Assembly: GCA_001662655.1 (NCBI GenBank)
Contig: KV460216.1
Length of the DNA stretch: 64,000 nucleotides
Source: Pseudogymnoascus verrucosus
Lineage: Eukaryota
Direction: 5' to 3' (one strand)
Under the pieces are notes generated by a model. The model saw only the letters and a program-made list of their open reading frames with translations. It did no database searches and had not been told where the DNA came from. Numbering within the stretch: the first letter of the stretch is position 1; each line of letters starts with the position of its first letter. Below are positions 36,403-64,000 of this stretch, one piece after another. The position numbers and the translations under genes are program-made.

Positions 36403-36509
36403 GGGCTCAACCGGGATTTGAACCCGGGACCTGTCACATTCAAGCATCTGTTCTTTGAGAACAGGGGATGAATCCCGAAGCAACAATCATACGACTAGAC
36501 CATTGAGCC
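36403..36509 (-). tRNA. tRNA-Pro(CGG) with ~35-nt intron
   Basis: GGCTCAA acceptor stem pairs with TTGAGCC; TGGTCTAGTCG A-box; GTTGC-TT-CGG anticodon arm; CCGGGTTCAAATCCCGG T-arm; downstream T-run terminator. Confidence 0.92.
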
Positions 36510-44773: not shown

Positions 44774-45467
44774 GTTGAGAGGTATTGAAAACGTTGAAAT
44801 GTGGGCGATATCATTGCCACTATTTTGGAAGATTGTTGCCTCATATACAAATTCACGGGTTTAGTTCCATTTTCATTAGTGCTTTCCTGTAGATGGCTAG
44901 AAAGGTCACCTGCGACGAATATATTATCAGATCACGCTGACCTTCCTCGATTGGCGGAAGTTCCCTGTATTCCACTTTAGGCTGAGGTAAAGTTGACTAT
45001 TTTCTTGTTTTGCGTTACGGCTAAATTGGGTCTATAATCGCGGTTCCAAAGCAGCGAATCTTAAGTTGCCATCATTAACAATCTTGTTTACTTGGCACTC
45101 ACCCACAGCAGAGATGACTGCCGTAAATATATTAAGCACACATGAAGCTAAGAAAGACGGCCAGTCCATTTGCTGAAGCTCCCACACAAACCGGCTAAGA
45201 AATAATTATCTCCGGGAGTACTATATTTAATTATATGAAATGAAATTAGCGTCATCAATATTTTGGTCACAAGCTTCGAAAGAACTGCCGAACATCAGAA
45301 GTTGTACTTCCGACTCTACTGTCGCAGAATTATCAAACGTAGGCAGTGAGCAGGACTTGGCATTCTACGAGGCTATCTTTCTTATCCTCTTTAAAGGGAG
45401 CTTCCTAAGACTTTTGAATATATTCCAAGCTCTCATCCTTAGCCAATCAGTCATGTTTGAGAAGTGG

Positions 45468-48400
45468 TTAGAAAACCGTGAAGAACTCCTTCCACTTTTC
45501 TTCCCACACCTTCTTAAGTTCATGCATCACTATTTTCTTGGGCGTATCCTCAGAAACCTCGATATAATCATGCCCCTTTCTGCAAACACCCAGGTTACTT
45601 CCTTTATTTATCTTTTGCCAGCACCTGTGACATAGAATGGTATTAGTGCAGTAGTAGCATAGACGGACTGGGTTGTCTTCGTCGAAGTTGTCCATCGTCG
45701 TGCCGCAGGGGCCATTGCATTCGACATTAATCTTAGAAGGTTTATGATTTGGTTTCTCCACTTTCCTAGACCTCGTCCGGTCCGCTTTCTCACGTTGCCC
45801 CCCATCATCGATATTTAAATCAGAACTGACCAGGCACCAGTTTTTGAACGCGGCTCTTGATTGTTCCTCTAGCCCTAGCAGAGCCAGAATTTTAGCAAGC
45901 ATCACGTAGCTTGGCTTGTCGTTGTAGATTACGTTGTCTGTCAGCGCCTTGTAGCAACTATGAAAGGTCTTGTCTACTTCCTCAAAGAATTTCTTCTCCT
46001 GCTTCGTACGTCGGTATATTATGGCAAGTGGGATACTCAGCGGCGACAAGGACACCTCAAAATCCGGGTCTTGTATGCCCGAAAACCATTTAATTACGTG
46101 TTCCATGCTGCCTTGTGCCTTCTCCTTTCTGCTTAAGTAGTCTTCAACTTCTTCGTTGGCCAACGGGCGGCAGAACTCCTCAAAGTAATAGTCCATTAGT
46201 TGCCAGCTTGCAAATGTCTTCGTCGCAAAACTAGCGTTTGTCGTAGGGTTTAGCACCAAAAGAAGATCCTTTACACTCTGCTCAGCCCACTCCTCCTTGC
46301 CGTCGGAACCCGGAAGACTGTAGAATCGCCAAAAGATAGCACGCCAAAGGAGTGTCGAGCCTAACAATTGACTGTTTTGCTGCTTCTCGAGGGTCTCAAT
46401 AGCTTTGTCGTATAAAACCTTGATTCTCTTAAGGACACTAGTATTTCCTTGCGCGCTGTATTGAATGAACTTATGTGTTTCTTTCTTGCATCCATCTGAG
46501 AGTTGCGTGTCGCTGACGCCATTTAAGAGCAGATGCATGTTGTCCCAATGACCCCGATTCCGCTCCGCTCGTTCCGCTATGTGCCTTACAATATCATCGA
46601 AGAAGGTTATTTCCGGGTACCCTGAAATTCTCCCGATAATTTTTTTCTCCTCTTCGAGACAGCTATTTAGCTTGATTTCAATTTTGAGTTTCAATTGCTT
46701 TGTCCTCTCAACTTTCTCTTTTCCCTTCTCTTTGTCTTTAGAGCATTTTTCTCCACACTTGACCGCTTCATCAAGATTCCTTAACGCTTCTCTAAGTTTC
46801 CCTTTGTCGTCTTTCCTAGGATATGAGTCTTCTACGTCACCGAAGTTAATACGACCGATCCTGTCATAAAGCTCAAACTTCGTCCATGGATCGTTTGGAG
46901 GATCATTTGGATCTAATTCTAGTCCCAAGTTGGCTTTTGATAAAGCCTCATCGTAGTGTCCATTATACCGCAAGGCCATCGCGAGGCACTTATAGTCTTG
47001 CGCGCTATATGACTTTCCCCATAAATTCTCTGAAACTTCCATGATAGAATCGGCTGTAATTTCCGCTTTAAATTCTTTACGGCCGGAATATCGAAGCATT
47101 TGATTGGCTAGTTGAAAGCAAGTGTAAGCCTCGACCGGAAATTTGCTGAATCGCCAATTCTGAGCATGCGCCCTAGCAATCTCTTTGCAAACATTTCTAT
47201 AACATTCGCTCCTACTTTGGCAACCTTCGCTCAAGTTTCGGCAACCGTTGCTCATCCTTCGGCAAAAGCTCTTGAGTTTCGCACGTTTAGGCCCATAGCC
47301 ATCCTCTTCCAGATACATGTTAGACCAATCCCAAATCGATTTCGCGATTTTGTCAGCATTTGTTCTGTTAATTTTTGTCTGGCTTTCGATCTTCGCTAGA
47401 GCGTCATTCCTTATCTCATCGACATCCAAGACATTAGAAATCATCATGATTACAGATTCAGCGCCTGGATACTCGTATTTTGTTTTGTGGGGGACACAAG
47501 TATTTAGCCTTAGGAGGTAGTCGCTCCATGACTTTGCGGCGTAAGAGGACAATTCCGCATCTGCCACATCTGCCGTAGAATTATATGCATCACTCTTTGC
47601 CATAGTGAGTACCATCGTAACCAGCTCAAACATCACTACTATGGGGGGTATCCGATCTTCGCTAGAATTACGGAGGAAGAAGGTTCGAAGCGATGGCTCT
47701 GAAAATGCGAGAAAGCTAGTATTGTCATACTCGTTTATCTTCGAATCTCGGTAATTGTGTTCTATCGCTGTCAAAAAATTCGGCGAAAGGGATAAGATCC
47801 TGTAAGTGTTAGAGCGTGCTAGGTTTTCGGTGTGAAATGTGAGGTTTCTCCTACCGAGACAAGGGACCGTCTAATTCATCGTCGATATCGATGTCTTCTC
47901 CATCTTCATGTTTACCCTTTTCCTTGATCCACTCATGGAGCCGTCGTATAGCACCCAGGGTAAAGCGATGCTCTGCATAGGCAAGCCATATCAAGATTTT
48001 TCTTCGCTGCTGGTACTCCTTTGCGCTGCGGCGACTACCAAACAATTGCTTGTAGATGTCATCAGTGCTTTCAGGTAGCTCGCCCCATTGAACCTTGAGC
48101 CACGTACTATTATTCAGTCCATGGAGGGTATGCTCAATATATGGAAAACCTAGGATTCGGTCAGCAAATCTAAGACTAGCTAAGTACGAGTTGGTAGGTG
48201 ACGTACTGTCAGCCTTGCTGCACACCTCGTCGATGATTATTGTCTTGCGATATTCCGGAAGCATCGAAAGCCTTTGCAAGGTTTGTAGGCGAGATTTCGC
48301 AAATATTTCCAAATCGTTCTTGCTTTCAGTTACATTCTCACGTCTGCTTCTAAATGTCAAATCGATGACTGCTGTCCTAGTTTCATCGGGCTGTTCCATT

Positions 48401-49911
48401 TCTTCTGAATTGTCTGATGCCAAAGAAATGGCAGGGTGCAACAGGATTTCCTTGAGCTTGTCGTTGATCTTGACCATTTCTGTGTAGGCCTCGTCGTCGA
48501 CCTTGATCTTTTCCATGTTGGCGCCATCTATCACTAAGAACATGCGTGTGTTCTTCACTCCCTCAGTTTTCTCAAGGAACAACTCTAGACATAAGTGATT
48601 CTTGATGTGTTTGTCTGTGCAGTTGCAAGTGTCCTGTTTTTTGTCCTCTCGCTCCTTCAAATCCTCAACGAGCCGTTTACGGTATTTATTATCCTGCATA
48701 GCAAACTGAAGCGCACAGCAACATATCATGTCTTGGACAGTGAAGCGCTTGCCGCTCCGATCTGCGAAGCTGAAGTAGGCCGTGAGAATTCTCTCTTCGG
48801 CCTCGGGTCGTTGTGCTATTAAGCTGTAGAAGATATAGAAGAGCAACATGCTTTTGCCACTCCAAGCGCCGCCTTTTATAATCAGTCGAGTGATTTCACC
48901 TTCCTTAAATTTCTTGAAATCCGCTGTCTCGTGCAACCAAAGACAAGTGTCTTGCATGAAGGCATACCCCATTTCCGCTATATGCTGTCTAAGAGACAAC
49001 TCAGCACCTGTAGAAAGTCGTTTTAGCGTGCCCTCTAATCCACTAAACCTTCTCTGTCCTAAGTCCGTCAACTTGTTTTCATAGGTGGTATCATTTGAAT
49101 TGTTTCTTTGAGAACGGACGCCACGGTATTCGCGCTCGGAATCGTTTCTGTGGTTTCCCATCACACCAAAAACAATGTCTTGCCGAGGCAACGTAGATAC
49201 ACTCCACAGTACCGTGCGAAGCAAACTCTGGGTCTCTCGAGACATTTCCTCCAAATTCTCTACTCCCCTGCCAGTTTGGACACTAATGCCAAGGGTGGCA
49301 GTGATGATGGCCGACTCGAAGTGGCTCATCTGATTGTTAAACTCGGCGTACGCTCCTGCTAGCCCGTCATCAGCCTGGAACAGCGTCTTGGTGAAAGTCA
49401 GCATGCGGCCAGCCTTCGTGAAAGTCTGCGCGATGGCACACATATTTAGAATTGTCCCTAACAACCGCACGAGCTGTGAGCGAAATGCGTTTTGAGGAGG
49501 CATCCTTTCTTGGAGAAGGGCCAACCTCTCACAGAAGATAATAACGGTTTCGTAGAAGCCGACAATCTGATCATACTTGTCGCTCACATTTTTGCATGCT
49601 CCAAGCACGAAGACAAGGGCCTGGCTAATAGTCGGGGCAGGCGGAAATGAGGCGCTTGCAATGTTGCCAGCCATGCCGACTAGAGTCTGGATGACACCCG
49701 ATAACTTCCCCAAGGATGTGCGAATTCTGTCTACCCATTTATCATTATGCCGAAAATCAAGGAATTTCTTTTGAAGTTCCGTTGCCTTCGTTGCAGGCTC
49801 ACTGCCAGGTTCAAATTTGTAGACGACTCCTGTGGTATTGTTATACTTCTTGATCGCCTCGTCCCAGATCGCCGTAAGGTCCGAATCTGCCGCTGGGATA
49901 TTGAGAGCCAT
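45468..49911 (-). CDS. NLR-like STAND protein: Goodbye-like N-terminus, NACHT-like NTPase, TPR-like region, C-terminal ZZ-like zinc finger
   Basis: DLTAIWDEAIKKY..F.FRH..ASASFPPA (Goodbye-like); TCLWL..IKGGAWSGKS Walker A; AYFSF; FLVIDG Walker B; C-terminal CNGPC..CYYC..LCHRC..C..H; introns ~48150-48206 and ~47800-47855. Confidence 0.8.
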
Positions 49912-50572
49912 GAGTGAACGAGGAGCAAGGTTCGCTTCTATAGGGGATATAATAGCTCTGTATTTTTTACAGCAGTTGAAGCAATATGTGCAAGTGTTGA
50001 TATTACAGCCGATAGGAACTCTTGGTCAATTTATTTTTATGTAACAATTGCCATTACATACATATACTGCGTTGGGCAGACCTGGAGAAGCACAATCGGT
50101 TGCATCAGGCAGGCTTGCAGGTGCATCCCGTTGCGTGTTTCTTCCGATACGGTTCCTGGAATCGGAGTATTATTTACCCGTTTACCACGTATTGTTCCTA
50201 GATATGGTTGCCTAAACTGTTTTTCGTTTTTCTTGGAGTTACACTGTACACAATGTGTAGAACTCTGTGTACACGAGATAGGGAACAGATCTTCCTAGTG
50301 CCAGTTCTGTGTTAACTCACTTCTAACGCTAGTTTATACGCGTAGTATTGCAGACTAGGTCACCGCAGCCTTACGTCCTTCATCAGCTCTTCTAAAACAA
50401 TAAAAATAAAAATAAAGCGGAGGTTTCCTACCACGACGCAGATTAGCCTTTCATTTTACCTCTAGTAAGTTCACGTCTAAGATATACTTATATGGCTTTT
50501 TCTTAACTTACTGCTAGAATACTGCAATATACTGTTTCTTTTATGACATAGTGTCACACCTACTCTTTAAAT

Positions 50573-52735
50573 ATGAGCAAACGGGCGAAGCGCAAAGCAA
50601 AGGAGATAACGATGTCCTCTGCCGGCTCTCAGAGCATTCAGTTCTACAATAAAGAAGGGAATATGTGCGAAAATACCTCTTTAGATGACCTGCGAGCTCA
50701 AAATAGTGAGCTTTGCAGTCGTTGCAACGGAATCGATATGGACAACGCATTAAAGGTTACGAATGATCAGAGTAGCCGCTTCATCATGCCTCTTGGAAAT
50801 ATCTCTGAGGATATGAAGTATTCTCTATGCCCACTTTGTCGCCTATTTTCTTTTACATTTGTCCCACTGGAGACTAAGCGATACCCTACTCTGAGAGGCC
50901 ATCACCTACGAGTGTTTATGGTTGATTCAACAGATATCAATACGATTAACTTTAGAGGACACGGAGTAGCTCTTGGAGTTTGCCAAGGAATTTTGGAAAA
51001 GAAGATAGCGGCTAAAGAACGACTGAGATGCCTTGCCAAGGGGTTTATTGCTCCCGTCTTCCCTCGGAATCCACACCCGAGTGCGCTTCAGCTGCAACTG
51101 GTTTCTAGAGGAAAAGTTGATTTTCAACAAATGCAAGCTTGGCTTCAGAAATGTCAAGATAATCATTCTGGAATTTGCGGACGAAAGACTGGCTCTCGTC
51201 CTATTGGTTTTAAATGCATTGATATCAACACCAGGTTGACTTGCTATATTAAGTCAGACGATGAGTATTATGCACTTAGTTACGTTTGGGCCACTTCAAA
51301 CACAGGCACTAGTGCTAAAGGTGTGACCGATGATGCTAGCGCACTGCCACTCTCCGGTGTGCCTCAAGTTATTGAAGATGCTATAGCTGTGGTGCGAGGT
51401 CTTGGAGGACAGTATTTATGGGTTGATAAGTATTGCATTAATCAAAAGGATCAAGATCAAAAGCAAACTCAGATTAACGCCATGGATAAGATTTATGAGG
51501 GTGCTATAGCAACAATTATCGCTGCTTCTGCAAAGAATTCGCCTCCTGGTCTGGCAGGTGTTAGTCGCCCCCGAATTCTGCAGCAACCTACTGAATTGGT
51601 TGGAAGTCATTTGCTGGCATCTACATTATCGCATATCTCTAAAGCTGTAGCAGCTTCTACTTGGGTCACGCGAGGTTGGACATACCAAGAGGCGGTCCTT
51701 TCCGAGAGGTGTTTTTTTTTTACAGACGAGCAAGTGCATTTTCTGTGCAGATGTTCGACTTCCTGCGAGTCTATTGCTGCGTCTCCAAAGGCAGTTATAT
51801 CGTCCCCTATAAGGGCAAGGACTAGGAATGATGCATGGAGCGTTAATGAAACAGCTGCTGGCCAAAACCTAACCGGCTTGTGGGACTTTTTCGACACCTT
51901 GCATCATTACAAAAGCCGGGATTTGACGTATGAGTCTGATTCTCTGAATGCTTTTCAGGGACTGCTAGCAAAGTCGAGCTTTAGGAACATCTGGGGGGTG
52001 CCAATTGCTTGCGATCCCGATCGAGAAGAAGCCGCCCTCTCTATTGGCTTTGCAAGAGGACTTTGGTGGGAGAATCCAGGAAACAACTGGAGCGATGTTC
52101 TGAAAGCTGAAGAAACGTACGTTTCATATACTCGACGTCCTAGTTTCCCAAGCTGGTCATGGGCTGGTTGGGGTGGTCCAACTCGGCCGCATAAATATTG
52201 TGGTGATAAGTCCTCTGATACTGGCTGCAACGAGGTGGACGATGAATCCTTCGATATACAGTTTTGGGTTGAGCTCACATCTGGCGAACAGATTTCTCTG
52301 AGTGAATTTTGTCACTTGACCAAAAAATCAAGCCAGGTTCCTCAACTGTCTCACATTTTACACATCGAAACAGAAATACACAAAGTAAGAATTCGTCGCC
52401 ATCCGCACCATCCAAAGTCTATGGCTTGCATTTGCGATTGTCCACTAGACTACAATCGATGCAATAAAAAGAAAAAGCATATGACGTCTACTCACAACGT
52501 CCGATTCTTCGAGGATCTAATGAGAAACGAAAGTTTTTCTGACGTCATCTTCTCTCAGTTCTGGGACGTTATTCCCCTTTTCACAGCTAAGGATTCAAAA
52601 TATTCAGTCTCAATTGCGTCGCTGATTATCGACTGGAATAAAGAGTCATCCGGTCTTGCTCAAGTTCGAGGGGTTGCATATCTTCACAGGAGATTATTTT
52701 TAGGTACTAGGCGCCTTAAGTTTCGGCTAACATGA
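50573..52735 (+). CDS. HET-domain (TOL-like) heterokaryon incompatibility protein
   Basis: YYALSYVW, PQVIEDAI, YLWVDKYCINQ, QINAMDKIYEGA..TIIA, WVTRGWTYQE..LSER, FPSWSWAGW; intronless 720 aa. Confidence 0.92.
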   Translation: MSKRAKRKAKEITMSSAGSQSIQFYNKEGNMCENTSLDDLRAQNSELCSRCNGIDMDNALKVTNDQSSRFIMPLGNISEDMKYSLCPLCRLFSFTFVPLETKRYPTLRGHHLRVFMVDSTDINTINFRGHGVALGVCQGILEKKIAAKERLRCLAKGFIAPVFPRNPHPSALQLQLVSRGKVDFQQMQAWLQKCQDNHSGICGRKTGSRPIGFKCIDINTRLTCYIKSDDEYYALSYVWATSNTGTSAKGVTDDASALPLSGVPQVIEDAIAVVRGLGGQYLWVDKYCINQKDQDQKQTQINAMDKIYEGAIATIIAASAKNSPPGLAGVSRPRILQQPTELVGSHLLASTLSHISKAVAASTWVTRGWTYQEAVLSERCFFFTDEQVHFLCRCSTSCESIAASPKAVISSPIRARTRNDAWSVNETAAGQNLTGLWDFFDTLHHYKSRDLTYESDSLNAFQGLLAKSSFRNIWGVPIACDPDREEAALSIGFARGLWWENPGNNWSDVLKAEETYVSYTRRPSFPSWSWAGWGGPTRPHKYCGDKSSDTGCNEVDDESFDIQFWVELTSGEQISLSEFCHLTKKSSQVPQLSHILHIETEIHKVRIRRHPHHPKSMACICDCPLDYNRCNKKKKHMTSTHNVRFFEDLMRNESFSDVIFSQFWDVIPLFTAKDSKYSVSIASLIIDWNKESSGLAQVRGVAYLHRRLFLGTRRLKFRLT

Positions 52736-52956: not shown

Positions 52957-54309
52957 CTAGATTACAGCCCCTGCCATTGCAATATCTAAAAGATGCTGAA
53001 TACGGCCTTTCACAGATTCATTAAAAGCCTCGCACTTTAAATCATTCTCGATTTCTTGGCGTAAAGATATGAGCTCGAGAGTCTTTGGGGTGTCCTTTGC
53101 GGTCTGTGTAGTGTCTCCTACAGTCTGTGGGCTGTCTTCGAAGATTGATGCGCTAGAGTCAATAGAAGCTTCGGAAGAATCCTGATCTTGGGATTGGGCT
53201 TGAGTATGTACATCAATTGCTCTCTGTCGTGCGCGATCATACAAAAGCGAAAACTGTGCCTTCTCATAATCTCTAGAGCGGCAATATTCTCTGCTGTATT
53301 CTTCTCTGAGTGAGATTTGCAATTGTTCAAAAGAACTAGCTGTATGAAATCGGAGCCTTTGCACAACCATTGAATGAGGTCCACATAGATGAATTCGATT
53401 TTGTTTACAAAACACTCTCAATTCGCGTGTATTGTAACAAGTCAGAGCATCGCTGATCAAAAATCGGGGTCTGCCATTTGCAATTGCCCTTGTTTGAGGT
53501 TCGAATATATTCATGAACCATTTCATGGTAATCTTTCTATCCAGATAGCCATTCCTGGATTGATTGTGGTGACAGTTAAGAACATGGCTGAGTGTTTGAT
53601 TTCTCTCGGCGTCAGTTGGCGAAATGATCAAGGGATTTATAAATCGACCGTCCATACTACTGCATTCAATGGTGGTAACAACCTTTCCTTCTTTATTGGC
53701 GTCCAAATAAGCGCGTATCGTATCCTCGCTGACAATTTCCGGAATTATTGCAGGAAATTTTAGTATGCCCCCTGTAGTAATAACGTGGTATGTGTTCTTA
53801 TTTAACGCCTTTAACGTGTCGAGTTTCGGTGATATGATGTTGATCCATGCATCTATATTATCGTAGATGTGCTGATCGCATTTTTTTGTGTTCTTTGCGA
53901 TTTTCAATGCGTTTTTTAGCGTAGGATGCCGTTTGTAGAATGCCGCCGACCAATTCTTTCCAGGCATGCGAACATCATCACCCTCTGGCTGATATTGGTG
54001 AACGGGTTCAATTGAATTGCGTTGGCGCTTAACATGATGAGCTATTTTTCGTATAAAGTTTCTTGGGGGACGATGCCCCCTCTGAGCCATAGACAACAAG
54101 CAAGTAGCAATTACTTTTTCTTCCTCATATGTCAAGTATTGTCTATCGTAGGCAGCTTCTCGTGTTGATTGGCGTCCAAGGTTCCGATGGCCTAAAGAAG
54201 TGAAATGAATCCCGCTCTTCAGGGAGAGATCCCTATATGTTATCCCGCGTGAATACCCATACTGGCTAAGCCAAGCCGCCGCCTTGTCAATTTCTAGGGG
54301 TTCAGCCAT
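52957..54309 (-). mobile_element. Fot1/pogo (Tc5 HTH + DDE_1) transposase-derived ORF, catalytically degenerate
   Basis: RQYLTYEEEK..GHRPP..PGKNWSAAFYKRHP (CENP-B-type HTH); VTTIEC.S.DG...PLII, NGY....WF..IFEPQT, RPRFLISD; no TIRs found. Confidence 0.8.
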
Positions 54310-54962
54310 AAGATCGATGCGAAAACGAGTATATGCCGAGCGTTAGGATTCGGAATCAGTACATGGTATTAAAAGATTTATGAGGACCTGGGATAAGATC
54401 ATTTAATTTTAAATCGCTTCAGAGCGTGATGATTCTGGTTTATATGTTGGGGACCCTGGCCCGTACAAGGCAGCTAGATGCACTGCCACCTGTCGTCCCT
54501 GTCAGTAGGTACAGTAAGGTGACGACGACATAGAAAGGCTGAGACACTATTCTGACTCAAAAATTTACTTCGCCCCTCCCATCCCTGAGGCAGCAAGGAT
54601 CTAGAATACACGTCACAACCTTTTAGCACGATTGATGGGAAGAAAAAACACGTACAATAGCAGATATCCGCTTAGTAGTCAGGCCAAGGAGAGTTGGGCA
54701 TCCAGTTCGCCTTGTTCAGTAATTGGGTAAGGTTATTCCATGGCTTAATGCCTCACCAAAACCATTCCCCGTTACCAGCGTAGCCTTCGCATCTCCACTC
54801 AAGCATTGCTGCTCTTTGCTACACTACTACTGGAAACCCCGTGGGGCAGCCGTTAGCGGACTGTGAGGAAGTGGGTGCTAGAAGACGCGAAATAGTTTGT
54901 TAATTTGGTTGATTCTGAAATCTGCCTCACCGCCTTGGTGAAACCTGTATTCTGTGCGCAGC

Positions 54963-55381
54963 TAGGCTGCGCCACGGGGGACCGACCCCAGACCGGACCA
55001 TGGTCTGGTCTGGTCCTAAATTTTTAGACCGGACCGTGGTCCGGCCTGAAGCCTCTAACCCACGGTCCCCCCACGGTCTGCCAAGAAACCGTTCAAAATA
55101 TAGCAGATGTACTGCTATACCTATTTTATAGGTAAAGGTACTTTATCATGTGATAAAGAGTTATAGTAGTATATTATGATTCGTCACGTGACAAAGCACC
55201 TTTACATATAAAATAGGTGTAGTAGTACATTTACAATATATTAAACGGTTTCTTGGCAGACCGTTGGGGGACCACACCGGTCTGGGCGGTTCGCCCTCAT
55301 TTTCCAACCCAGACCGCGGTCCGGGTTGGAAAATGTTCAGACCGCCGGTTTAGAACCACCGGTCCCCCATGACGCAGCCTA
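54963..55381. mobile_element. MITE / foldback element (419 bp), hAT-like TAG ends
   Basis: 22-bp TIRs TAGGCTGCGCCACGGGGGACCG (20/22 match), 7-bp flanking direct repeat GCGCAGC, internal 90-bp inverted arms 55064-55153 and 55184-55273. Confidence 0.9.
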
Positions 55382-55842
55382 GCGCAGCCTTGTCGCCGCC
55401 TGGCTTTTCTCCTCGATGCCCAAAATGAACAGATAACACATCACTAGTTGCCCGGGTTGCAGTGGATCCACTGCGCTGTACTGCAACCTGGCAACTAGTG
55501 ATGTCTGGTGATATACTATAGAAAAGAACGATACCGCCTCGAGAGTTCATTAGCACATGGTGTGAATTCAGGTGAGTTTCCTACAGCCGATAGTCGGTTA
55601 CAACATATGGGGCTAGATTATCAACATCATAAATTAGGGAAGCCAAACCGCTTGGCACTTTTCAGGTTTCAGTTAATGCATGTTTCCGTATTAGCTAACC
55701 ATTTACTTGCTTTAAGCGCTTGTTGAGCCCTGCTCATGTCCGACGGGCACGAGAGACTAGGCATCAACCGGAAAAACTCACAAAAAACTCACAAAAAGCG
55801 GCACTGGTACTTGTAACTTGTTATGGCTACCCCCCTCAATAA

Positions 55843-55864
55843 TCTTTGATGGTCTAATGGTCAT
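55843..55864 (+). other. 5' fragment (nt 1-22) of tRNA-Asp, att-like remnant
   Basis: TCTTTGATGGTCTAATGGTCAT matches 62803-62824 at 21/22; the upstream flank is also homologous. Confidence 0.85.
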
Positions 55865-56015
55865 ATAGACCATCCATAATTTGGGTGCATCCTGTTGCGT
55901 GTTTCTCGAATGCTGCTTTTGGTTTTCGCCATTTCGGTTCCTGGAATCGGAGAATGGTTTTCCCGCTTACTAGGAAGGTGCACAGCTTCTGGTAAACCAG
56001 AAACAATTTTCTAGT

Positions 56016-56060
56016 TCTTAGATTTATACGTCTTAGATTTATACGTCTTAGATTTATACG
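56016..56060 (+). repeat. 15-bp perfect tandem repeat x3
   Basis: TCTTAGATTTATACG repeated three times. Confidence 0.95.
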
Positions 56061-56454
56061 CTTTATACATTAGCTGTTTCCTAGATTCACGAAACGGTTT
56101 TCTCAATCTAGAACGTAAGGCCGCTTTCTCCATTTTTAGATGCAGCCTTGGTTATGCTAGTATAGAGTGAGAGAGTGGCCTTTCTTTATATACACTAGGG
56201 TCATCGCCTGCCCCCTTTTATCGCTGAGTAATATGAGCCCTCTTCTAAACTCTCTTGTCTTCTTTTATATTTCTGCTCCTGTTGCTTTCACTCCTCATTC
56301 AGGAATCTCTACCCCTTCAGTTCTCGCTACATCTAACTACCTGCAATGATACCTGGCGATAATGACTGGCTTCGTTCTCAATTTGCTGGGTTGGGGGCAT
56401 CGCCAGTGCCAAAACAGTAGCCTGTATGAGCAAAAAAAGAGATTACAGGTGGGA

Positions 56455-56607
56455 AATCGACCAACCATCCCCCGCTTCCAGGAAGCCGCTGTCGTGATCA
56501 AAAACACGGGATGCGGCTGTTAGAGCGGCCCGAGGCAGACATCACAATCGACCAACTGTCTCCCGTTTCCATAAAGCTGTCGTCACGTGACAGGGTGCGT
56601 CTCTAGA
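56455..56607 (+). repeat. ~91-bp repeat unit, two tandem copies (a further copy lies at 62482-62586)
   Basis: AATCGACCAACCATCCCCCGCTTCCAGGAAGCCGCTGTCGTG at 56455 and a variant at 56546. Confidence 0.85.
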
Positions 56608-56819
56608 CTCAGGAATAAAAGTTAGTCAACGTTACAGAATTTGTATCATGACCTAGTAATTTAATCACATAAACTAGCCAGTAATGAGCGCTAAATCACA
56701 AGGACTTATAAAATAGCTTAACCTAAAAAGACCATTAGAATATCCTGCTATTACTCATTAGGTGCTCTGATCTAGGACTAGGCTGGAGCCAAAGAGTATT
56801 CTTCTCATTCCGTGCGATC

Positions 56820-59800
56820 TTAACCTGTAGAAGATAGTGCGTGCCCTTCGAGAGTCTCGGCGATCAAATTGTGCCCTTTCATTAAAGCTTTTGCGAGAGG
56901 CATAACGCCATCGTTGTCTGGTATATGAAGGTCCGCATTTTTGCATAGTAGCCACGCCACAGCTTCGTTATGTCCATTCGCTGATGCCCACCAAAGAGGC
57001 GTACGACCGGTCAGATCTTGAGAGTTCACATTTACTACCCCTAGCTTAAAGAGGGTGGCCAGGACAGGGACATGGCCTTCTCTTGCAGCTAGCGCGAATG
57101 GAGTTTGGCCAGAACAATCTGCAAAATCTAGCTCCTTATGGCTCTGCGCCAACAGAAGAGAAACAATCGCAACATCCCCGTTATACGCTGCTGTATGTAA
57201 GGCGTATTTAAACCAGCCACAAGGGACATCTGTCCTCATCCCGTTGCTAAGTGCCAACTTAACTATATACTCATTGTGTGCTTCCACTCCCTCGTGGAAT
57301 GCCTTGATCTGAGCTCCACGCTCGAGTAGAACCTGCGCCTTTGCGTTAATATTCAGCGACAGTATATGTTGGATGGCCGTGAAGAATTGATTAAGAAGGT
57401 TGATATCGGCTCTCGCCTCGAGCAGCTGCGTGACAACGGCAGCGTGCCCTCTATACGCCGCCGCCTGCAGAGCATTGTCGTATTGTCCTCCCTGTGCGTT
57501 GACATTAGCTCCTGCCTTAAGCAGCTGCGTGACGACAGCCGCATGCCCTCCATACGCCGCCGCCTGCAGAGCGTTGCCGTAGTGTCCGCCCTCTACGATA
57601 ACGTCAGCTCCCGCCTCAAGCAGCTGCAGGACGACGGCAGCATGCCCTCTATACGCCGCTGCCTGTAGAGCGTTGCCATGTTCTCCGCCCTGCGCGTTAA
57701 CGTCAGCTCCTGCCTCAAGCAGCTGTGTAACAACGGCTAGGTGACCACTATACGCTGTCGCCTGTAGAGCGTTGCCGTAGTGTCCGCCCTGCGCGTTGAC
57801 GTCAGCTCCTGCCTTAAGCAGCTGCGTGACAACGGCAGCATACCCTCCATACGCCGCTGCCTGCAGAGCGTTGCCATGTTCTCCGCCCTGCGCGTTAACG
57901 TCAGCTCCTGCCTCAAGCAGCTGCGTAACCACGGCTAGGTGACCACTAATCGCTGTCGCCTGTAGAGCGTTGCCGTGGTGTCCGCCCTGCGCGTTGACGT
58001 CAGCTCCTGCCTCGAGTAGCTGGGTGACAACGGCAGCGTGCCCTCCATGCAACACCGCCGTCGCCTGTAGAGCGTTGCAGTACTGCCCGCCCTGCGCATT
58101 AACGTCAGCTCCTGCCTCAAGCAGCTGCGTAACCACGGCTAGGTGACCACTATACGCTGTCGCCTGTAGAGCGTTGCCGTAGTGTCCGCCCTGCGCGTTA
58201 ACGTCAGCTCCTGCCTCAAGCAGCTGCGTAACCACGGCTAGGTGACCACTATACGCTGTCGCCTGTAGAGCGTTGCCGTGGTGTCCGCCCTGCGCGTTGA
58301 CGTCAGCTCCTGCCTTAAGCAGCATATTAACCAATATCCTATTTCCTTTTGTAGCAGCAGCTTGAAGGGCATTCCCCGATGCTCCTGTGCTCTCATTAAC
58401 ATCGGCACCGCGATGTAATAAAAGTCGTAACATCTCTTCATGCCCATTTCCAGCTGCGCACTCTAGCGCTGTACTGTCGTTCCTACTCTTTGCCCCTATA
58501 TCAGCGCCAGCATCAATCAAAATTTCAGCCAAGACTTTGTGGCCCCAGCGTGAAGCATAGTGCAATGCTCGATTACCAGCATCATCTTCTTCATTTATAT
58601 TTACATTATCACGTTGGAGAATTTGGACGACGCTTCGAAGATTTGAGCTAGATGCAATGTGTAATAGGGTGGAGCCAAGCTCGGGGCATTTTGCGTTTCC
58701 TTGGAAATCTATTTTCCCATAGATTTTTACCCAGGTCTGAAAAGCTGGTCCTGGAGGGGATCCGAGTTGCTGCACCAAGTCCTGTTGTGAAGTTCCAAAA
58801 CTTTCGGCCTTTTCCGCATGCAAGAACCAAAACTTTGTGGCATACCTCAGAAATGGAAGATTCTCTAAACGTGACGATACATCCGTGTAGCCGAAGTCTT
58901 TATGGTCGGCCAATTCTGAGCCACCAACAAGGACTTCCTCCAACCTCAAATAGTTAATACATGACTTAGACAGCCGACCCTGACTTTGGCCGATAATATC
59001 ATCCATCGATGAGGAGAGATCCTTTAGACCGCCAGATAGGAGGAAATCGTTGACTGATTGATGGATAAATTGTACGGTGGTTTTGAACATATGATGCTTA
59101 ACCTCAACAAGGCCACCAGACAGGCTTCTGATCAGTCTCTCCATACGCGCATCAGTGTCCACAAAGTCCTTTGCTTCTTTACAAGATTCTCGTGCTGGAT
59201 GAATATACAGGTCATCTGAGGCTATCGCAAACCGTAGCTCTGTCACTGAGAGTGGTACCTCAGCTAGGCAAATCCACTGCATCAGATGAAATGTTCTTGT
59301 GCGATTCCGATGATCGATGACCTCCCTAAAGATGTGTTCGTAAACGTCGCCCAGGTCTGTTGGTACCTTGCTTAACTCTTTGTAGATATACTGTAATGAC
59401 TCTCCTTGTTGATTGAGATCAACGACTAGTGGAACAACAAGACGTGCCCACTGGAATACTCCTGAAGCTCGCGTCACAATAGTTCCTTCAAGTTCTTGGA
59501 ATTCGTCAATTGAAAGGCCCACCATGTTCATTTCTTGAATTCCAGAGTTGAGCCTGTGCTTGACGTACTTTGTAATGTCATTGTGGTTTTCGTCTTCAAC
59601 ACAGATTTCCAAACTGTTGTTGGCCGCTACTATCGGATAATGACGACATGAGATGCAGATTCTTGAAGCGCCTTTCATAGCTGCAAGTTTATCGTTTAAG
59701 TCGTGGAAGTACATAGCAAGATCTCGCGCAACAATGCTGCCAGCCTCATCTAGTGCGTCCACGAAGATAGTTATCTTCCATAACTTAGCGGAGTCAATAA

Positions 59801-61847
59801 GAGCGTTCGAGAAAAGGTCCTTCAATTCTTTGCACTGCCATTCCCAACTAGTTCCAGCCTTGCCAAAGCTCTTTTTCTCTTTAAAGGCAGTCTGTATTGG
59901 CAATCTCACCAATGGAATCTTTGTGTATATTTGATATAAAAGGGATCGAAACATGCCGATTGGAGTTTTTTGTAATGCAGCACCCCGCCCATGGAAGAAG
60001 AACTCAAGACCTATGCGTTGGTTTAAGAGAAAATTGTCCTGGGATGCCTGGAATTCCTGATAGAGGAACGCCATCAAGGTAGACTTCCCTGCGCCAGGCT
60101 TTCCTTTTATCCAAAGAAGTTCACGTTCCTTGCTTATCCACTTTGTATAGGACCTATGTTGCAATATCCACTCACACGTATGTAAATGAGCTTGGTCTGC
60201 CTCCTGCCGTCGGTAGGTAATCTCAGGAAAAGCGAACGACTTAAGGCAATCTTTCTAGGGTTAGAATTGCAGCTCCTGTGATATAACGGAGGGTCGAAGC
60301 ATACCATTATCTTCGGAAGTCATTTCCTCCTTCTCTAGGTTGATAAATTATTCAGTAAATTCCTGTAGCATAGATCCAATTTCACGGGCGATCAAGGAGA
60401 CATAATTAGTTATCGTTACCTTTGGTGGAAAATGTCACACGAGGAATTACCAAGACAGCAACAGACATCATTCGCTTCAGCACAGCGAGAACCCTTTCAT
60501 AGTCCTCATCGTTACTAGAGAACTTGACCAACTGTGAATGACTTCTTTTCAGTGCCAAACAGTGATGCGCTTCATTCTCCCATGGGCGGCCGTGCCTTGC
60601 GGATGAGCTATCGACCAAGATGCTAAGCGGCCCCGTCATCTTCCACTTCTCTCCATCCTAGAAGAAACCGTTAGAAGAAACCAACACTTAGAACATCGTG
60701 CTTACCTTAGCTGCAGTTGGCGACATTTCAGTTTCAAAGAAGCAGATTATTTCTGAGTCTTGATGGCCGAAGGCTTTGGGGAAATCTCTGCACTGGTTGC
60801 GCAGAATCTGTGATTCTTTTCCGAGCGAATGTAACAGACCTTGGTTAGGTTGATCTTTGACTAATGGAATAAGAGAAGTAATCTCCATTCCCTGACTTGG
60901 TACACCGAAAAAAAGCGCACCATATATAGAATCAAGCAAAGCATGGTGATTCTTGTCGCGCTTCATTTGTATTATAGCTTCTTTGACTATGAGGCCCCCA
61001 AGACTGTGGGCAACAAATATCAATGGTACTGTCTTAGGCTTGGTATGTTTAGAGTCTTGTGTAGTTAGGGTCTGAAGATCTGATCGTAACAGGCTCCCCA
61101 GTGCTTCAAGGTCTTGAAAAGTGTGACTATCATGCAGTTGGGTGTCATAGCCGTAGATCATGACTCGGGCGCCGGTAAGATCGGAGGGAAGTGAATCGCG
61201 CAACCACATATGTGGTCCTGCTCGCTCTTTGAAGGACCCAAAAGCGTGCCCGCCAAGCCCCGAGATCGCAACGCAGCTAACTCTGTCAGCCATGTAATTC
61301 CCGCCAAGTACGCAAAGATACCTACTCGATCTTGTGCTCTGCGACATTCTTGAAGGATCGAAATATTGTGATGCCTCTGAAGTGGCTATCGATTGTAATC
61401 GTAGGTGCCTTGGGAATGATATCGTCATCGTCGTCGCTCTCAGCATCGCTGTTGTCAACATCAGGGATCTCAAAAGACCACTCCTTTCGGTCTGATGACA
61501 GACAGGGAGGTGGGTTTTGGAAATTGACGGTGGCCATCTTAGTCTTCTGGTTAGGACTGATGGCTATCGACTTGACTTGAACCGTGCCCCGAGCTGCATC
61601 AAGTCCTAAGACTGATCGAAGCAATTCCTGGACCTGTCGCAGCTTATATTCCAGTGGTATTCCTCGCACCCGATATGTAACCTGCGATATTTTTGCATTA
61701 GCCGGCGGGTAAGCTATGGATGTCTTGATGTACTCATAGATTAGACTCAACATGAGTTTCTTGATTTGGTGTTAGACTTACAGACTCCAAGTCATTCAGC
61801 TTCCGTTTTTTTGATCCATTGCTATACTGAGTCGCATAGCTAGTCAT
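56820..61847 (-). CDS. NLR: SesB-like alpha/beta hydrolase + NACHT + ankyrin repeats
   Basis: VAISGLGGHAFGSFK, MWLRDSLP, FVAHSLGG (SesB/PGAP1-like); TCEWIL..LLWIKGKPGAGKST, IFVDALDE, ICISCRHYP; nine near-identical 33-aa ankyrin repeats; start MTSYATQYSNG inferred from splice phase. Confidence 0.9.
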
Positions 61848-62481
61848 ATTGTCAAATTATGAGAAGATCATAGAGTTAGGTTTGAATCTGCCTTTCGAAC
61901 TGTCTTCGAAGTTTCAAAACTAAATCGAGAGTAGTTCTTGTAAGATACTTTTTGGTACGCTGAAGGCTGTGGCTATATTCTCCACGACGTGTCAAAGGGT
62001 TGGTGCTTCAGCCGCATCCCAATATCTATTTATAGATACCACTAACAACTGACTTAACCGGATCTACCCTTACTATCAAGTGACTTCCTTGAGCGCTTAA
62101 TTTGGAGGTACCTACCCATGTGGCGACGTTGTATGGCAAAACTCCGTAGTCACCATAAGGCTGAAAATGATTTGTTAGCATCGTGGTGAGGCTCGGAAAC
62201 CTAGACCAAAGTGTTCTATGAGTTAAAAGACGCAAAGAGCTCGTGGTGATGCTACAGGTCGAGGGGTTCTATTATACTTCGAATTGACGCAACGCCCTCC
62301 GCAATTAGGTGCGACGGCATACTTGTAAATTTCAATGTAGCTGGGGCTTGAACTATTCAAGAGTAGTCACATAACATGACTGACACAAAAATGCTGGAAT
62401 TTTCAATGGATTCACAAATTTAGAATCAATTGAATTCAAAGTACTAATGGCTCGTCTTGAATCGTTAATTTGGCACAGCAA

Positions 62482-62586
62482 GTAATCGAAGATACAGGAT
62501 GCGGCCATTCGATTCGAGAGGCCTGAGGCAGATTTGGTAAATCGACCAACCATCCCCCGTTTTCATGAAGCTGTCGTCGTGTTCAG
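62482..62586 (+). repeat. Direct-repeat copy of the 56455 unit
   Basis: ..ACAGGATGCGGC..GGCCTGAGGCAGA..AATCGACCAACCATCCCCCGTTTTCATGAAGCTGTCGTCGTG. Confidence 0.85.
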
Positions 62587-62802
62587 TGGCTTGTAGACCC
62601 CACGCCACAAAGGACGGGAAGCAAGAAGCCGTATTGTGCATAATTCTAAAAACAGTCTTTTATGCTAACGAGAAACTGAAGTCGGGAATTAGAGAATGAC
62701 AAAACCCGATTCCAGGCATCAACTTTTTGGTTGCTAGCTCCGGAAAAACTGACGAAAAGCAGCGCCAGTTCTTCTTTTCCGTTACCCCGTTTCCGACAAC
62801 AA

Positions 62803-62884
62803 TCTTTGATGGTCTAACGGTCATGATTTCCGCTTGTCATGTGACAAAGCGCGGGAGACCGGGGTTCGACTCCCCGTCAGAGAG
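62803..62884 (+). tRNA. tRNA-Asp(GTC) with ~10-nt intron
   Basis: TCTTTGA/TCAGAGA acceptor stem, TGGTCTAACGG A-box, TCCGC-TT-GTC-A anticodon arm with TGTGACAAAG intron, CGGGGTTCGACTCCCCG T-arm. Confidence 0.92.
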
Positions 62885-63383
62885 AATTTCCTCTCTGAGC
62901 TCATGGCTCAGAATATATTTTTGCTTATTTTTTTGTTTTATCGCTGAAGCCATTCAGTTTTAAACCGTTATTTCAATACCTTTTTTGGAGCTGTGTCGAA
63001 GCTGCGAGGAGGGTAAACTGGTTAGCGTACACGAAGAGCAGGCGACTCTCTTCACGCTCAGAAAACAGGCTCCAGGGCATCATATCAGGGTCCTGCCAGG
63101 GAGAGAGTATTGAGGATAGCGCGCTTAGCCAAATTCCCCCCAGTTGACAGTGGTGAAACAGGTCTAAGATGGCCGTGGGGTGCTCTCCTACCAACTAATA
63201 CTACTATTTTCATATCTACAGCGTCGGAAAACTATCACTTCGTTCACATTAATCTGCGTCTATTATATACATCGCAAGATAATCTCTTCCTCTACACTTT
63301 ATATATCATCGCAACGCAGCGCCGCCCTGGCGACAAGGGACCATTCTATCTACGTCGCCTTTCGCGACGCGTCGATCAAAGTG

Positions 63384-64000
63384 ATGTCAACACTATCCAC
63401 TTTCCACCTCTTCCCCAGCCTCCCCGTCGAGATCCGCCTCAAAATCTGGTCTTTACTCCTCTCAATTCCTCGATCGGTAAGATGTACCCAAAACATCATA
63501 AGTCATGCCGCCCCTCGCGTTATCAAAGTCTGGGATACCGATACTCCATCCCCGCCTCTTCTCCACGTGAACCGCGAATCTCGGTACGAAGCCCTCGCCG
63601 TCTATGCACCATATTTCGCCACCCCTTCTAATCCACGACCCATATATCTCTCCCTCCCTCAAGACGTGGTCAGGTTCACGGATGGCCTCCTGCCTTATAT
63701 CCCCGATGGACCCCTGAATGAGATCCAGCATATGATTACGGATACGAAAGATTGTGCTTATTTTGGGTACTATCACATGGGCACTCTAAAGAGCATGAAG
63801 AGGCTGAGGGAGCTGGAGATATATGCAGAGAAGGGCCTAGTCTATGGAGGGGATGATACGGATCGGTTTATTAATTTGCTCGTGTCAGAATTTGAGGACG
63901 CGATGGAGGCTGATCCAGGGTGGGAATGTCCAAAAGTCAGGATTGTCGATGCGCAGACAGGAAAGGACTTGAGGTTTATTGAGGGTGGGGCAAAAATACC
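63384..64000 (+). CDS. 2EXR-domain protein; 3' end runs off the window
   Basis: Open frame absent from the ORF track: MSTLSTFHLFPSLPVEIRLKIW..PPLLHVNRESRYEALAVY..IYLSLPQD. Confidence 0.85.
   Translation, partial: MSTLSTFHLFPSLPVEIRLKIWSLLLSIPRSVRCTQNIISHAAPRVIKVWDTDTPSPPLLHVNRESRYEALAVYAPYFATPSNPRPIYLSLPQDVVRFTDGLLPYIPDGPLNEIQHMITDTKDCAYFGYYHMGTLKSMKRLRELEIYAEKGLVYGGDDTDRFINLLVSEFEDAMEADPGWECPKVRIVDAQTGKDLRFIEGGAKI

Follow-up and report, generated by a model that had tools for sequence, protein, structure and literature searches.

The perfect inverted repeat at positions 55848 to 55874 of the window, by which is meant the whole 64,000-nt stretch of Pseudogymnoascus verrucosus DNA analysed here (contig KV460216.1), probably marks a left junction of attL type, where a Starship-like element, since decayed, was put into a tRNA-Asp(GTC) gene by a DUF3435 'Captain' recombinase. 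An attL-like site had been suspected at this position in an initial annotation made from the letters alone, and that suspicion is supported by a junction that recurs at five fungal loci in metagenome contigs, by a DUF3435 gene inside the junction at three of them and by a remnant of such a gene in the window itself. The window is a nuclear region of a filamentous ascomycete. The proposed insertion would explain the puzzling half tRNA at this site.

Anatomy of the junction and its recurrence

The dyad (no strand assigned) is composed of the arm GATGGTCTA at 55848-55856, the spacer ATGGTCATA at 55857-55865 and the arm TAGACCATC at 55866-55874, exactly as first described in both letters and coordinates, namely as a perfect 9-bp inverted repeat with a 9-nt spacer. 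As single-stranded DNA, 55848-55874 is predicted to fold with -7.2 kcal/mol (z -3.4). Taken alone the dyad is within chance and unremarkable because seven loci in the 64-kb window bear perfect 9-bp inverted repeats; these comprise 11 arm pairs with spacers of at most 12 nt, against a mean of 3.2 pairs (sd 2.0, maximum 9) in 100 block shuffles. What goes beyond chance is the position of the dyad and its recurrence.

The position is defined by a truncated tRNA gene. Nucleotides 1-22 of tRNA-Asp(GTC) occupy 55843-55864 (+) and are taken as the remnant of the target gene, matching 62803-62824 at 21 of 22 nt with a C to T change at 55858 as the sole difference. The end of tRNA identity had been placed within the spacer, and in comparison with the intact gene it does stop there, after 55864. 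The intact tRNA-Asp(GTC) gene (62803-62884, +, 82 nt; identified by ARAGORN and scoring 44 bits with the Rfam tRNA model) lies 6.96 kb downstream of the remnant in the same orientation; it is used here to represent the target before interruption and could itself be the right junction. It is the one tRNA that ARAGORN calls in the window, neither ARAGORN nor Rfam calls a tRNA in the remnant (55843-55864), and besides the intact gene the window holds no further 3' part of a tRNA-Asp. Elsewhere in the window a 107-nt tRNA gene at 36403-36509 (-), presumably with a long intron, reaches 38 bits with Rfam and is missed by ARAGORN.

Related junctions were sought with a pattern consisting of tRNA nt 8-22, then 0-8 nt, then 7 nt of the right arm, so that 15 nt of tRNA and 7 nt of arm are demanded by the pattern and are conserved by construction. 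Metagenome contigs gave six matches, which correspond to five distinct loci (L001, L002, L003, L004 and L006), L003 being the exact reverse complement of L005, one 3023-nt sequence of 41.6% GC in two metagenome records; each locus was followed for 1.5 kb on either side of the junction. The pattern had no matches in the prokaryote genome collection and none in viral contigs. Whether the same TAGACCATC arm follows tRNA-Asp fragments elsewhere was the check proposed at the outset, and the arm is present at these five distinct environmental fungal loci; the dyad is therefore not unique to the window, the finding that was to have told against an att site. Outside the pattern, tRNA nt 1-7 are kept at all five distinct loci, at one of them with a single mismatch.

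Tyrosine recombinase core sites consist of inverted arms around an overlap of 6-8 bp. The related loci have arms of 12 bp, separated by 7 nt in L001, L003/L005 and L006, by 8 nt in L004 and by 9 nt in L002, and this consensus of 12-bp arms with a 7-bp spacer fits the expected overlap, already invoked in the initial annotation, better than the 9-9-9 arrangement of the window. The hairpins of these loci are predicted to be stable, with -10 to -11 kcal/mol (z -4.7 to -6.7). Read against its metagenome relatives, the window dyad is a slightly decayed 12-7-12 site in which 10 of 12 arm positions still pair around 7 nt. The left, target-side arm TTGATGGTCTAA at 55846-55857 (+) is tRNA nt 4-15 and is the same in all five distinct metagenome loci. 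The spacer and proposed crossover region at 55858-55864 (+) reads TGGTCAT in the window, and CGGTCAT in the intact tRNA gene and the related loci. The right, element-side arm ATAGACCATCCA at 55865-55876 (+) differs from the consensus of the relatives, TTAGACCATCAA, at 2 of 12 positions. The intact gene bears the left arm and spacer at 62806-62824, and the overlap CGGTCAT that it has in common with the junction (tRNA nt 16-22, 62818-62824) is expected from the nature of the fragment. No inverted second arm is recognisable after its spacer (62806-62836; about 2 of 12 positions match by eye), so that the target would offer one good arm only.

Downstream of the junction the DNA is homologous among L001, L003/L005 and L006 and, more distantly, L004 and the window. 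The upstream flanks of the loci are unrelated except for a short flank motif. The boundary is sharpest between L001 and L006, which come from one assembly: 417 of 439 downstream positions (95%) are identical, compared to 154 of 248 (62%) upstream, the latter being background for that scoring. Such a sharp boundary is what a recently mobile element gives. As minor observations on these contigs, L004 carries a tRNA-Ser(AGA) gene at 759-839, 660 nt upstream of its junction, and the upstream ORF of L006 (3-983, -) was judged by eye to be a UV-endonuclease-like host gene.

Three of the five distinct loci (L001, L003/L005 and L006) contain a DUF3435 tyrosine-recombinase gene that begins 450-480 bp past the junction and reads inward on the same strand. 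In L001 only the start of the gene is present before the contig ends. In L006 a series of ORFs begins about 450 bp past the junction on the same strand, and its segment 1973-2773 matches the 592-aa protein P0001; L006:2441-2734 shares 73% identity with it (E 2.6e-31), and P0001 in turn matches DUF3435 (PF11917) with an E value of 1.1e-32. The direct Pfam DUF3435 score of L006:2441-2734 is 20.3 bits, below the cutoff of 25.8, so the family assignment of this piece rests on P0001. With tblastn, P0001 aligns over aa 1-221 to L006 and over aa 8-267 to L003/L005, where the copy is a pseudogene and looks decayed, its frame being broken by stops. L004 shows homology at the DNA level only, and its first exon looks degenerate. 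No recombinase gene was found within 1.5 kb downstream of the L002 dyad; an ORF that was judged by eye to be FHA-kinase-like (581-1549) is found there in its place. The closest named relatives of the recombinase are from a Pseudogymnoascus strain. Junction anatomy, recurrence and recombinase homology are all seen in the sequences.

In the window the recombinase gene is reduced to its first 34 codons with two in-frame stops (56346-56447, +), as seen by tblastn and in translation. The interval 56346-56453 matches aa 1-36 of P0001 at 53% identity (tblastn, E 3e-6), and the translation reads MIPGDNDWLRSQFAGLGASPVPKQ, stop, PV, stop, AKKEIT. P0003, whose N-terminus shares 88% identity with the first 24 aa of this translation, has Q and R at the positions of the two stops; these changes would fit C-to-T decay. 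Similarity to the recombinase gene ends at about 56447, where a repeat termed D2 begins.

Proposed course of the insertion and alternative readings

For recombinase binding, the position of the crossover and the direction of events we infer the following course. The target-side arm is tRNA nt 4-15 and the 7-bp spacer tRNA nt 16-22. The element-side arm would be the end of the element itself, which repeats the target arm in inverted orientation. Two recombinase monomers would bind the two arms, and strand exchange would take place within the 7-bp stretch common to the element and the tRNA gene. In the product, the end of the element would directly follow tRNA nt 1-22 and the recombinase gene would begin about 480 bp farther in and read inward, a layout that by its sequence corresponds to the B-O-P' of an attL.

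It has to be considered whether the 22 tRNA-like bases are a target remnant at all. They could belong to the element as a tRNA-mimicking terminus, in which case insertion could occur anywhere and the site would simply be an element end. Similarity among the copies begins exactly at tRNA nt 1, as this would have it, and the flanks of L002, L004 and L006 do not resemble the sequence before the intact tRNA-Asp gene of the window. The upstream bases in the window, L001 and L003, however, are homologous to the 5' flank of intact tRNA-Asp, the piece begins at the first base of the tRNA and ends in the D-loop region, and the tRNA-Ser gene upstream of the L004 junction suggests a tRNA neighbourhood; a mimicking terminus is accordingly improbable.

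The homologous flank, here called flank A, comprises about 85 nt before the disrupted tRNA-Asp (55759-55842, +) and aligns locally with a copy before the intact gene (62714-62802, +), where 3-5 contigs per related genome cover the flank. Over the 50-90 nt that precede the tRNA piece, the window fragment, the window's intact gene, L001 and in part L003 can be aligned, with pairwise identities of 47-59% in the four-sequence alignment, and the 10-mer AGGCATCAAC stands at -84 to -75 in both the window fragment and L001. Beyond flank A no longer shared upstream block was found, BLAST among the upstream flanks giving 36 nt between L001 and L003 only. The remnant and its flank are by these comparisons paralogous to the intact gene and its flank, and a flank of this kind may be conserved among the tRNA-Asp genes of these fungi. 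A weak flank-A-like match at 45253-45310 (nhmmer E 0.004) is not followed by a tRNA piece. Duplication of a 6.96-kb unit in tandem is ruled out, as only about 107 nt are common to 55759-55865 and 62714-62825.

A second alternative sees in the conserved hairpin a cis-regulatory or RNA feature of the region upstream of the recombinase gene, such as a relic of a Pol III A-box or a transcript hairpin. The stable folds predicted for the related loci and the T-runs 50-70 nt downstream in the copies are in its favour, and the left arm overlaps the tRNA A-box region. No Rfam family matches 55843-56345 even at an E value of 10, though, no B-box-like motif is seen downstream by eye, and a regulatory hairpin leaves unexplained why unrelated DNA begins exactly upstream of tRNA nt 1. 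We regard it as quite improbable. The Rfam result, together with the absence of an ARAGORN call, also disposes of a SINE or known RNA; a Helitron-type 3' end was rejected because no hairpin with a CTRR end is seen on either strand by eye, and a Tc1/pogo-type end at the TA beside the junction because there is no matching terminal repeat, a nearby DDE_1 remnant being unrelated.

The initial annotation had named a template-switch or fold-back repair scar as the alternative to an att site; it would be the trace of a single event at a break in the tRNA gene. tRNA genes are known fragile sites, and the right arm exactly repeats, in inverted form, letters that stand a few bases before it, the outcome expected of snap-back synthesis. 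A random scar would be unique, whereas at five other distinct loci the same arm follows tRNA-Asp nt 22 at nearly the same spacing, and homologous DNA and a recombinase gene come after it; the unrelated flanks speak against copies of one ancestral segmental duplication as the source of this recurrence. The scar can hence be set aside as very unlikely. Least likely of all is a chance inverted repeat beside a rearrangement breakpoint, for although 9-bp repeats occur at seven window loci and about three pairs are expected in shuffles, the dyad recurs, is 12 bp long elsewhere, and its pattern is absent from the prokaryote and viral collections.

The proposed element in the window

If the junction is an attL-type left junction as proposed, the element behind it would be an old wreck, judging from the two changes in the arm, the one change in the tRNA piece and a recombinase gene of 34 codons with two stops that is cut by a repeat. 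The non-coding left end, consisting of a subterminal region and the 5' leader of the recombinase gene, spans 55865-56345 (+) and was recognised with nhmmer: a profile built from metagenome left ends only matches 55843-55956 (E 1.8e-12), partly due to the shared tRNA and arm letters, and 56246-56454 (E 3.4e-6), a match that is independent of the scan pattern. Three 15-nt tandem repeats (TTAGATTTATACGTC-like) at 56008-56065 lie in this non-coding left end and are not seen in the metagenome copies.

The D2 repeat that cuts off the recombinase gene occupies 56450-56591 (+), with copies at 56450-56500 and 56541-56591. A further copy is found at 62482-62585 (62535-62585), upstream of the intact tRNA-Asp gene, and D2 is multi-copy in relatives. 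Paralogous contigs of two related genomes match 56212/56240-56451 at about 88-90% and then continue with unlike sequence; we read them as probable other copies that run on into the rest of the recombinase gene. In relatives the summed contig depth over 62016-62700 is at least 10-fold, that of a high-copy element.

The junction is not an assembly artefact because an independently assembled contig of a close relative spans it, covering 54000-57663 with six letters differing. For an empty-site comparison, contigs of four related genomes were examined over 54000-64000, and none of the 15 joints listed connects about 55865 to about 62825. Two joints in one related genome, 56499 to 62606 and 62585 to 56450, were considered as excision and ruled out, as they stem from the D2 repeat. 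Contig cover is absent in three relatives at 54000-54667, and in one at 55670-56337, which has no meaning on its own.

A second, shorter left-end relic with no dyad and no tRNA piece lies at 50117-50190 (+), about 460 nt upstream of the start of a HET-domain ORF. By BLAST, 55884-55906 matches 50120-50142 at 96% and 55935-55970 matches 50150-50185 at 86%. A longer homology between 50115-50674 and 55881-56437 comes from an over-gapped alignment and is not trusted outside the two BLAST blocks; the HET protein itself has no match in 55800-56900.

Among the features of Starships, the DUF3435 gene beside the 5' boundary and reading inward is present in the related loci, the window having only the 34 codons. 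As for end repeats, the left end alone is seen, in addition to a 28-nt direct repeat (55837-55864 and 62797-62824, 26 of 28) that is simply the tRNA 5' part of the neighbouring intact gene. As for possible cargo, the candidate interval, with its provisional limits, includes an NLR gene, and just upstream of it there are HET and NLR genes.

A more far-reaching version, which we hold as a tentative and on balance doubtful one, is that this Captain lineage behaves like a bacterial tRNA-integrating island and rebuilds tRNA-Asp on insertion, so that the intact gene would be the right junction. Both element ends would then be inverted copies of tRNA-Asp nt 4-15, and as a consequence the joined ends would form a perfect 12-7-12 site. 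The right end of the element together with the conserved flank A would restore a working tRNA-Asp gene, and at 62803-62884 a 7-kb element with an NLR gene, now eroded, would have its right junction. Flank A before 55843 together with the relic at 50117-50190 would be the remains of an older element, several elements having been arrayed in tandem at a single tRNA locus. If true, this would account for the occurrence of flank A in fungi with unrelated surroundings and in several copies per genome.

Comparison with known elements and genomic surroundings

Starships are the main known vehicles of large gene cargoes in filamentous fungi, and to our knowledge the choice of site by their recombinases is understood for very few. 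Among integrative elements and phages of bacteria and archaea, tyrosine integrases use tRNA genes as attB and the elements restore the gene. The junction described here resembles theirs in a crossover inside a tRNA gene, in inverted arms around an overlap of about 7 bp and in a tRNA fragment displaced to one junction. It differs in being eukaryotic and nuclear, in its DUF3435 enzyme, and in that the crossover would lie in the 5' (D-loop) part of the gene with the 5' fragment displaced. Retroelements such as Ty3 and the Dictyostelium TRE land upstream or downstream of tRNA genes through Pol III factors; like the present element they have Pol III genes as safe landing places, but they do not recombine at a specific site within such a gene.

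Starships have 'Captain' tyrosine recombinases, which are DUF3435 proteins; the Captain always occupies the 5' end with the same orientation, NLR and HET genes often accompany it, and many elements survive only as degraded relics. Bacterial tRNA-integrating elements have been cited as an analogy for Starships (PMC9156397). Reported Starship targets are 5S rDNA, AT-rich DNA, a TTAC(N7)A motif and one palindrome, with many elements inserting at fixed internal positions of the 5S rDNA (PMC11162782), and Voyager as well as many elements of the Enterprise and Arwing families are site-specific in 5S rDNA (PMC9156397, PMC11162782). The element described here is like the 5S rDNA Starships in having a DUF3435 Captain at the 5' end reading inward, common relics, a fixed internal position in a small conserved multi-copy Pol III gene, and NLR and HET genes nearby. 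It is unlike them in that the target is tRNA-Asp and not 5S rDNA, and in that the element terminus, known here from the left end alone, would be the inverted target arm giving a 12-7-12 dyad at the junction. The true target of Enterprise from Podospora is reported to be a 10-12 bp palindrome with a direct repeat of 5-6 bp (PMC11162782). Enterprise thus also has a dyad-type site for a Captain recombinase, but there the palindrome exists in the target before insertion, whereas here the intact target holds one arm and the dyad arises at the junction. Cryptons, likewise tyrosine-recombinase transposons of fungi, form the outgroup of the Captain tree (PMC11162782) and have a recombinase of another family, in contrast to the gene described here which groups with DUF3435 proteins.

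In the 2024 survey by Gluck-Thaler and Vogan insertion sites were screened with tRNAscan, and 5S rDNA and AT-rich sites were reported (PMC11162782). Supplement tables S1-S10 of that survey contain neither the arm nor the tRNA motif, and in the full-text literature searched no Starship or DUF3435 element was found for which a tRNA gene is given as the target. The recurrence of the junction in other fungi points to a tRNA-targeting lineage of these elements, of which no description was found in that literature. If there is indeed a lineage that inserts at one fixed tRNA-Asp base and whose junction reads like a textbook 12-7-12 core, it would provide a site at nucleotide level for binding and cleavage experiments, and intact or wrecked elements of this kind could be located in genomes by the junction as a simple sequence tag. 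A direct parallel could also be drawn to bacterial tRNA-targeting islands, which raises the testable question of whether a gene that is hit is repaired by the element.

The surroundings of the site are rich in NLR and HET genes and are likely to be wreckage of mobile elements. They include a HET-domain protein ORF (50573-52735) and NACHT-type NLRs with Goodbye or ankyrin domains (47851-49911 and 56820-60074), and a 2EXR protein is also encoded nearby. A 450-aa ORF at 52957-54309 (-) with a partial DDE_1 domain (pogo/Tc5-type transposase) is probably a transposon remnant. The sequence 54961-55383 is palindromic and MITE-like, with outer 24-nt arms that are 92% and inner 90-nt arms that are 87% complementary; its raised depth in related genomes is that of a multi-copy family, and its only Rfam hit is a sub-threshold miRNA-precursor match of the kind typical of long hairpins. 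ORFs at 60688-61753 with a DUF676/hydrolase domain may be the N-terminal part of the NACHT-ANK NLR gene at 56820-60074 (-), which in turn contains at 57357-58432 at least nine tandem 99-nt units encoding near-identical 33-aa ankyrin repeats.
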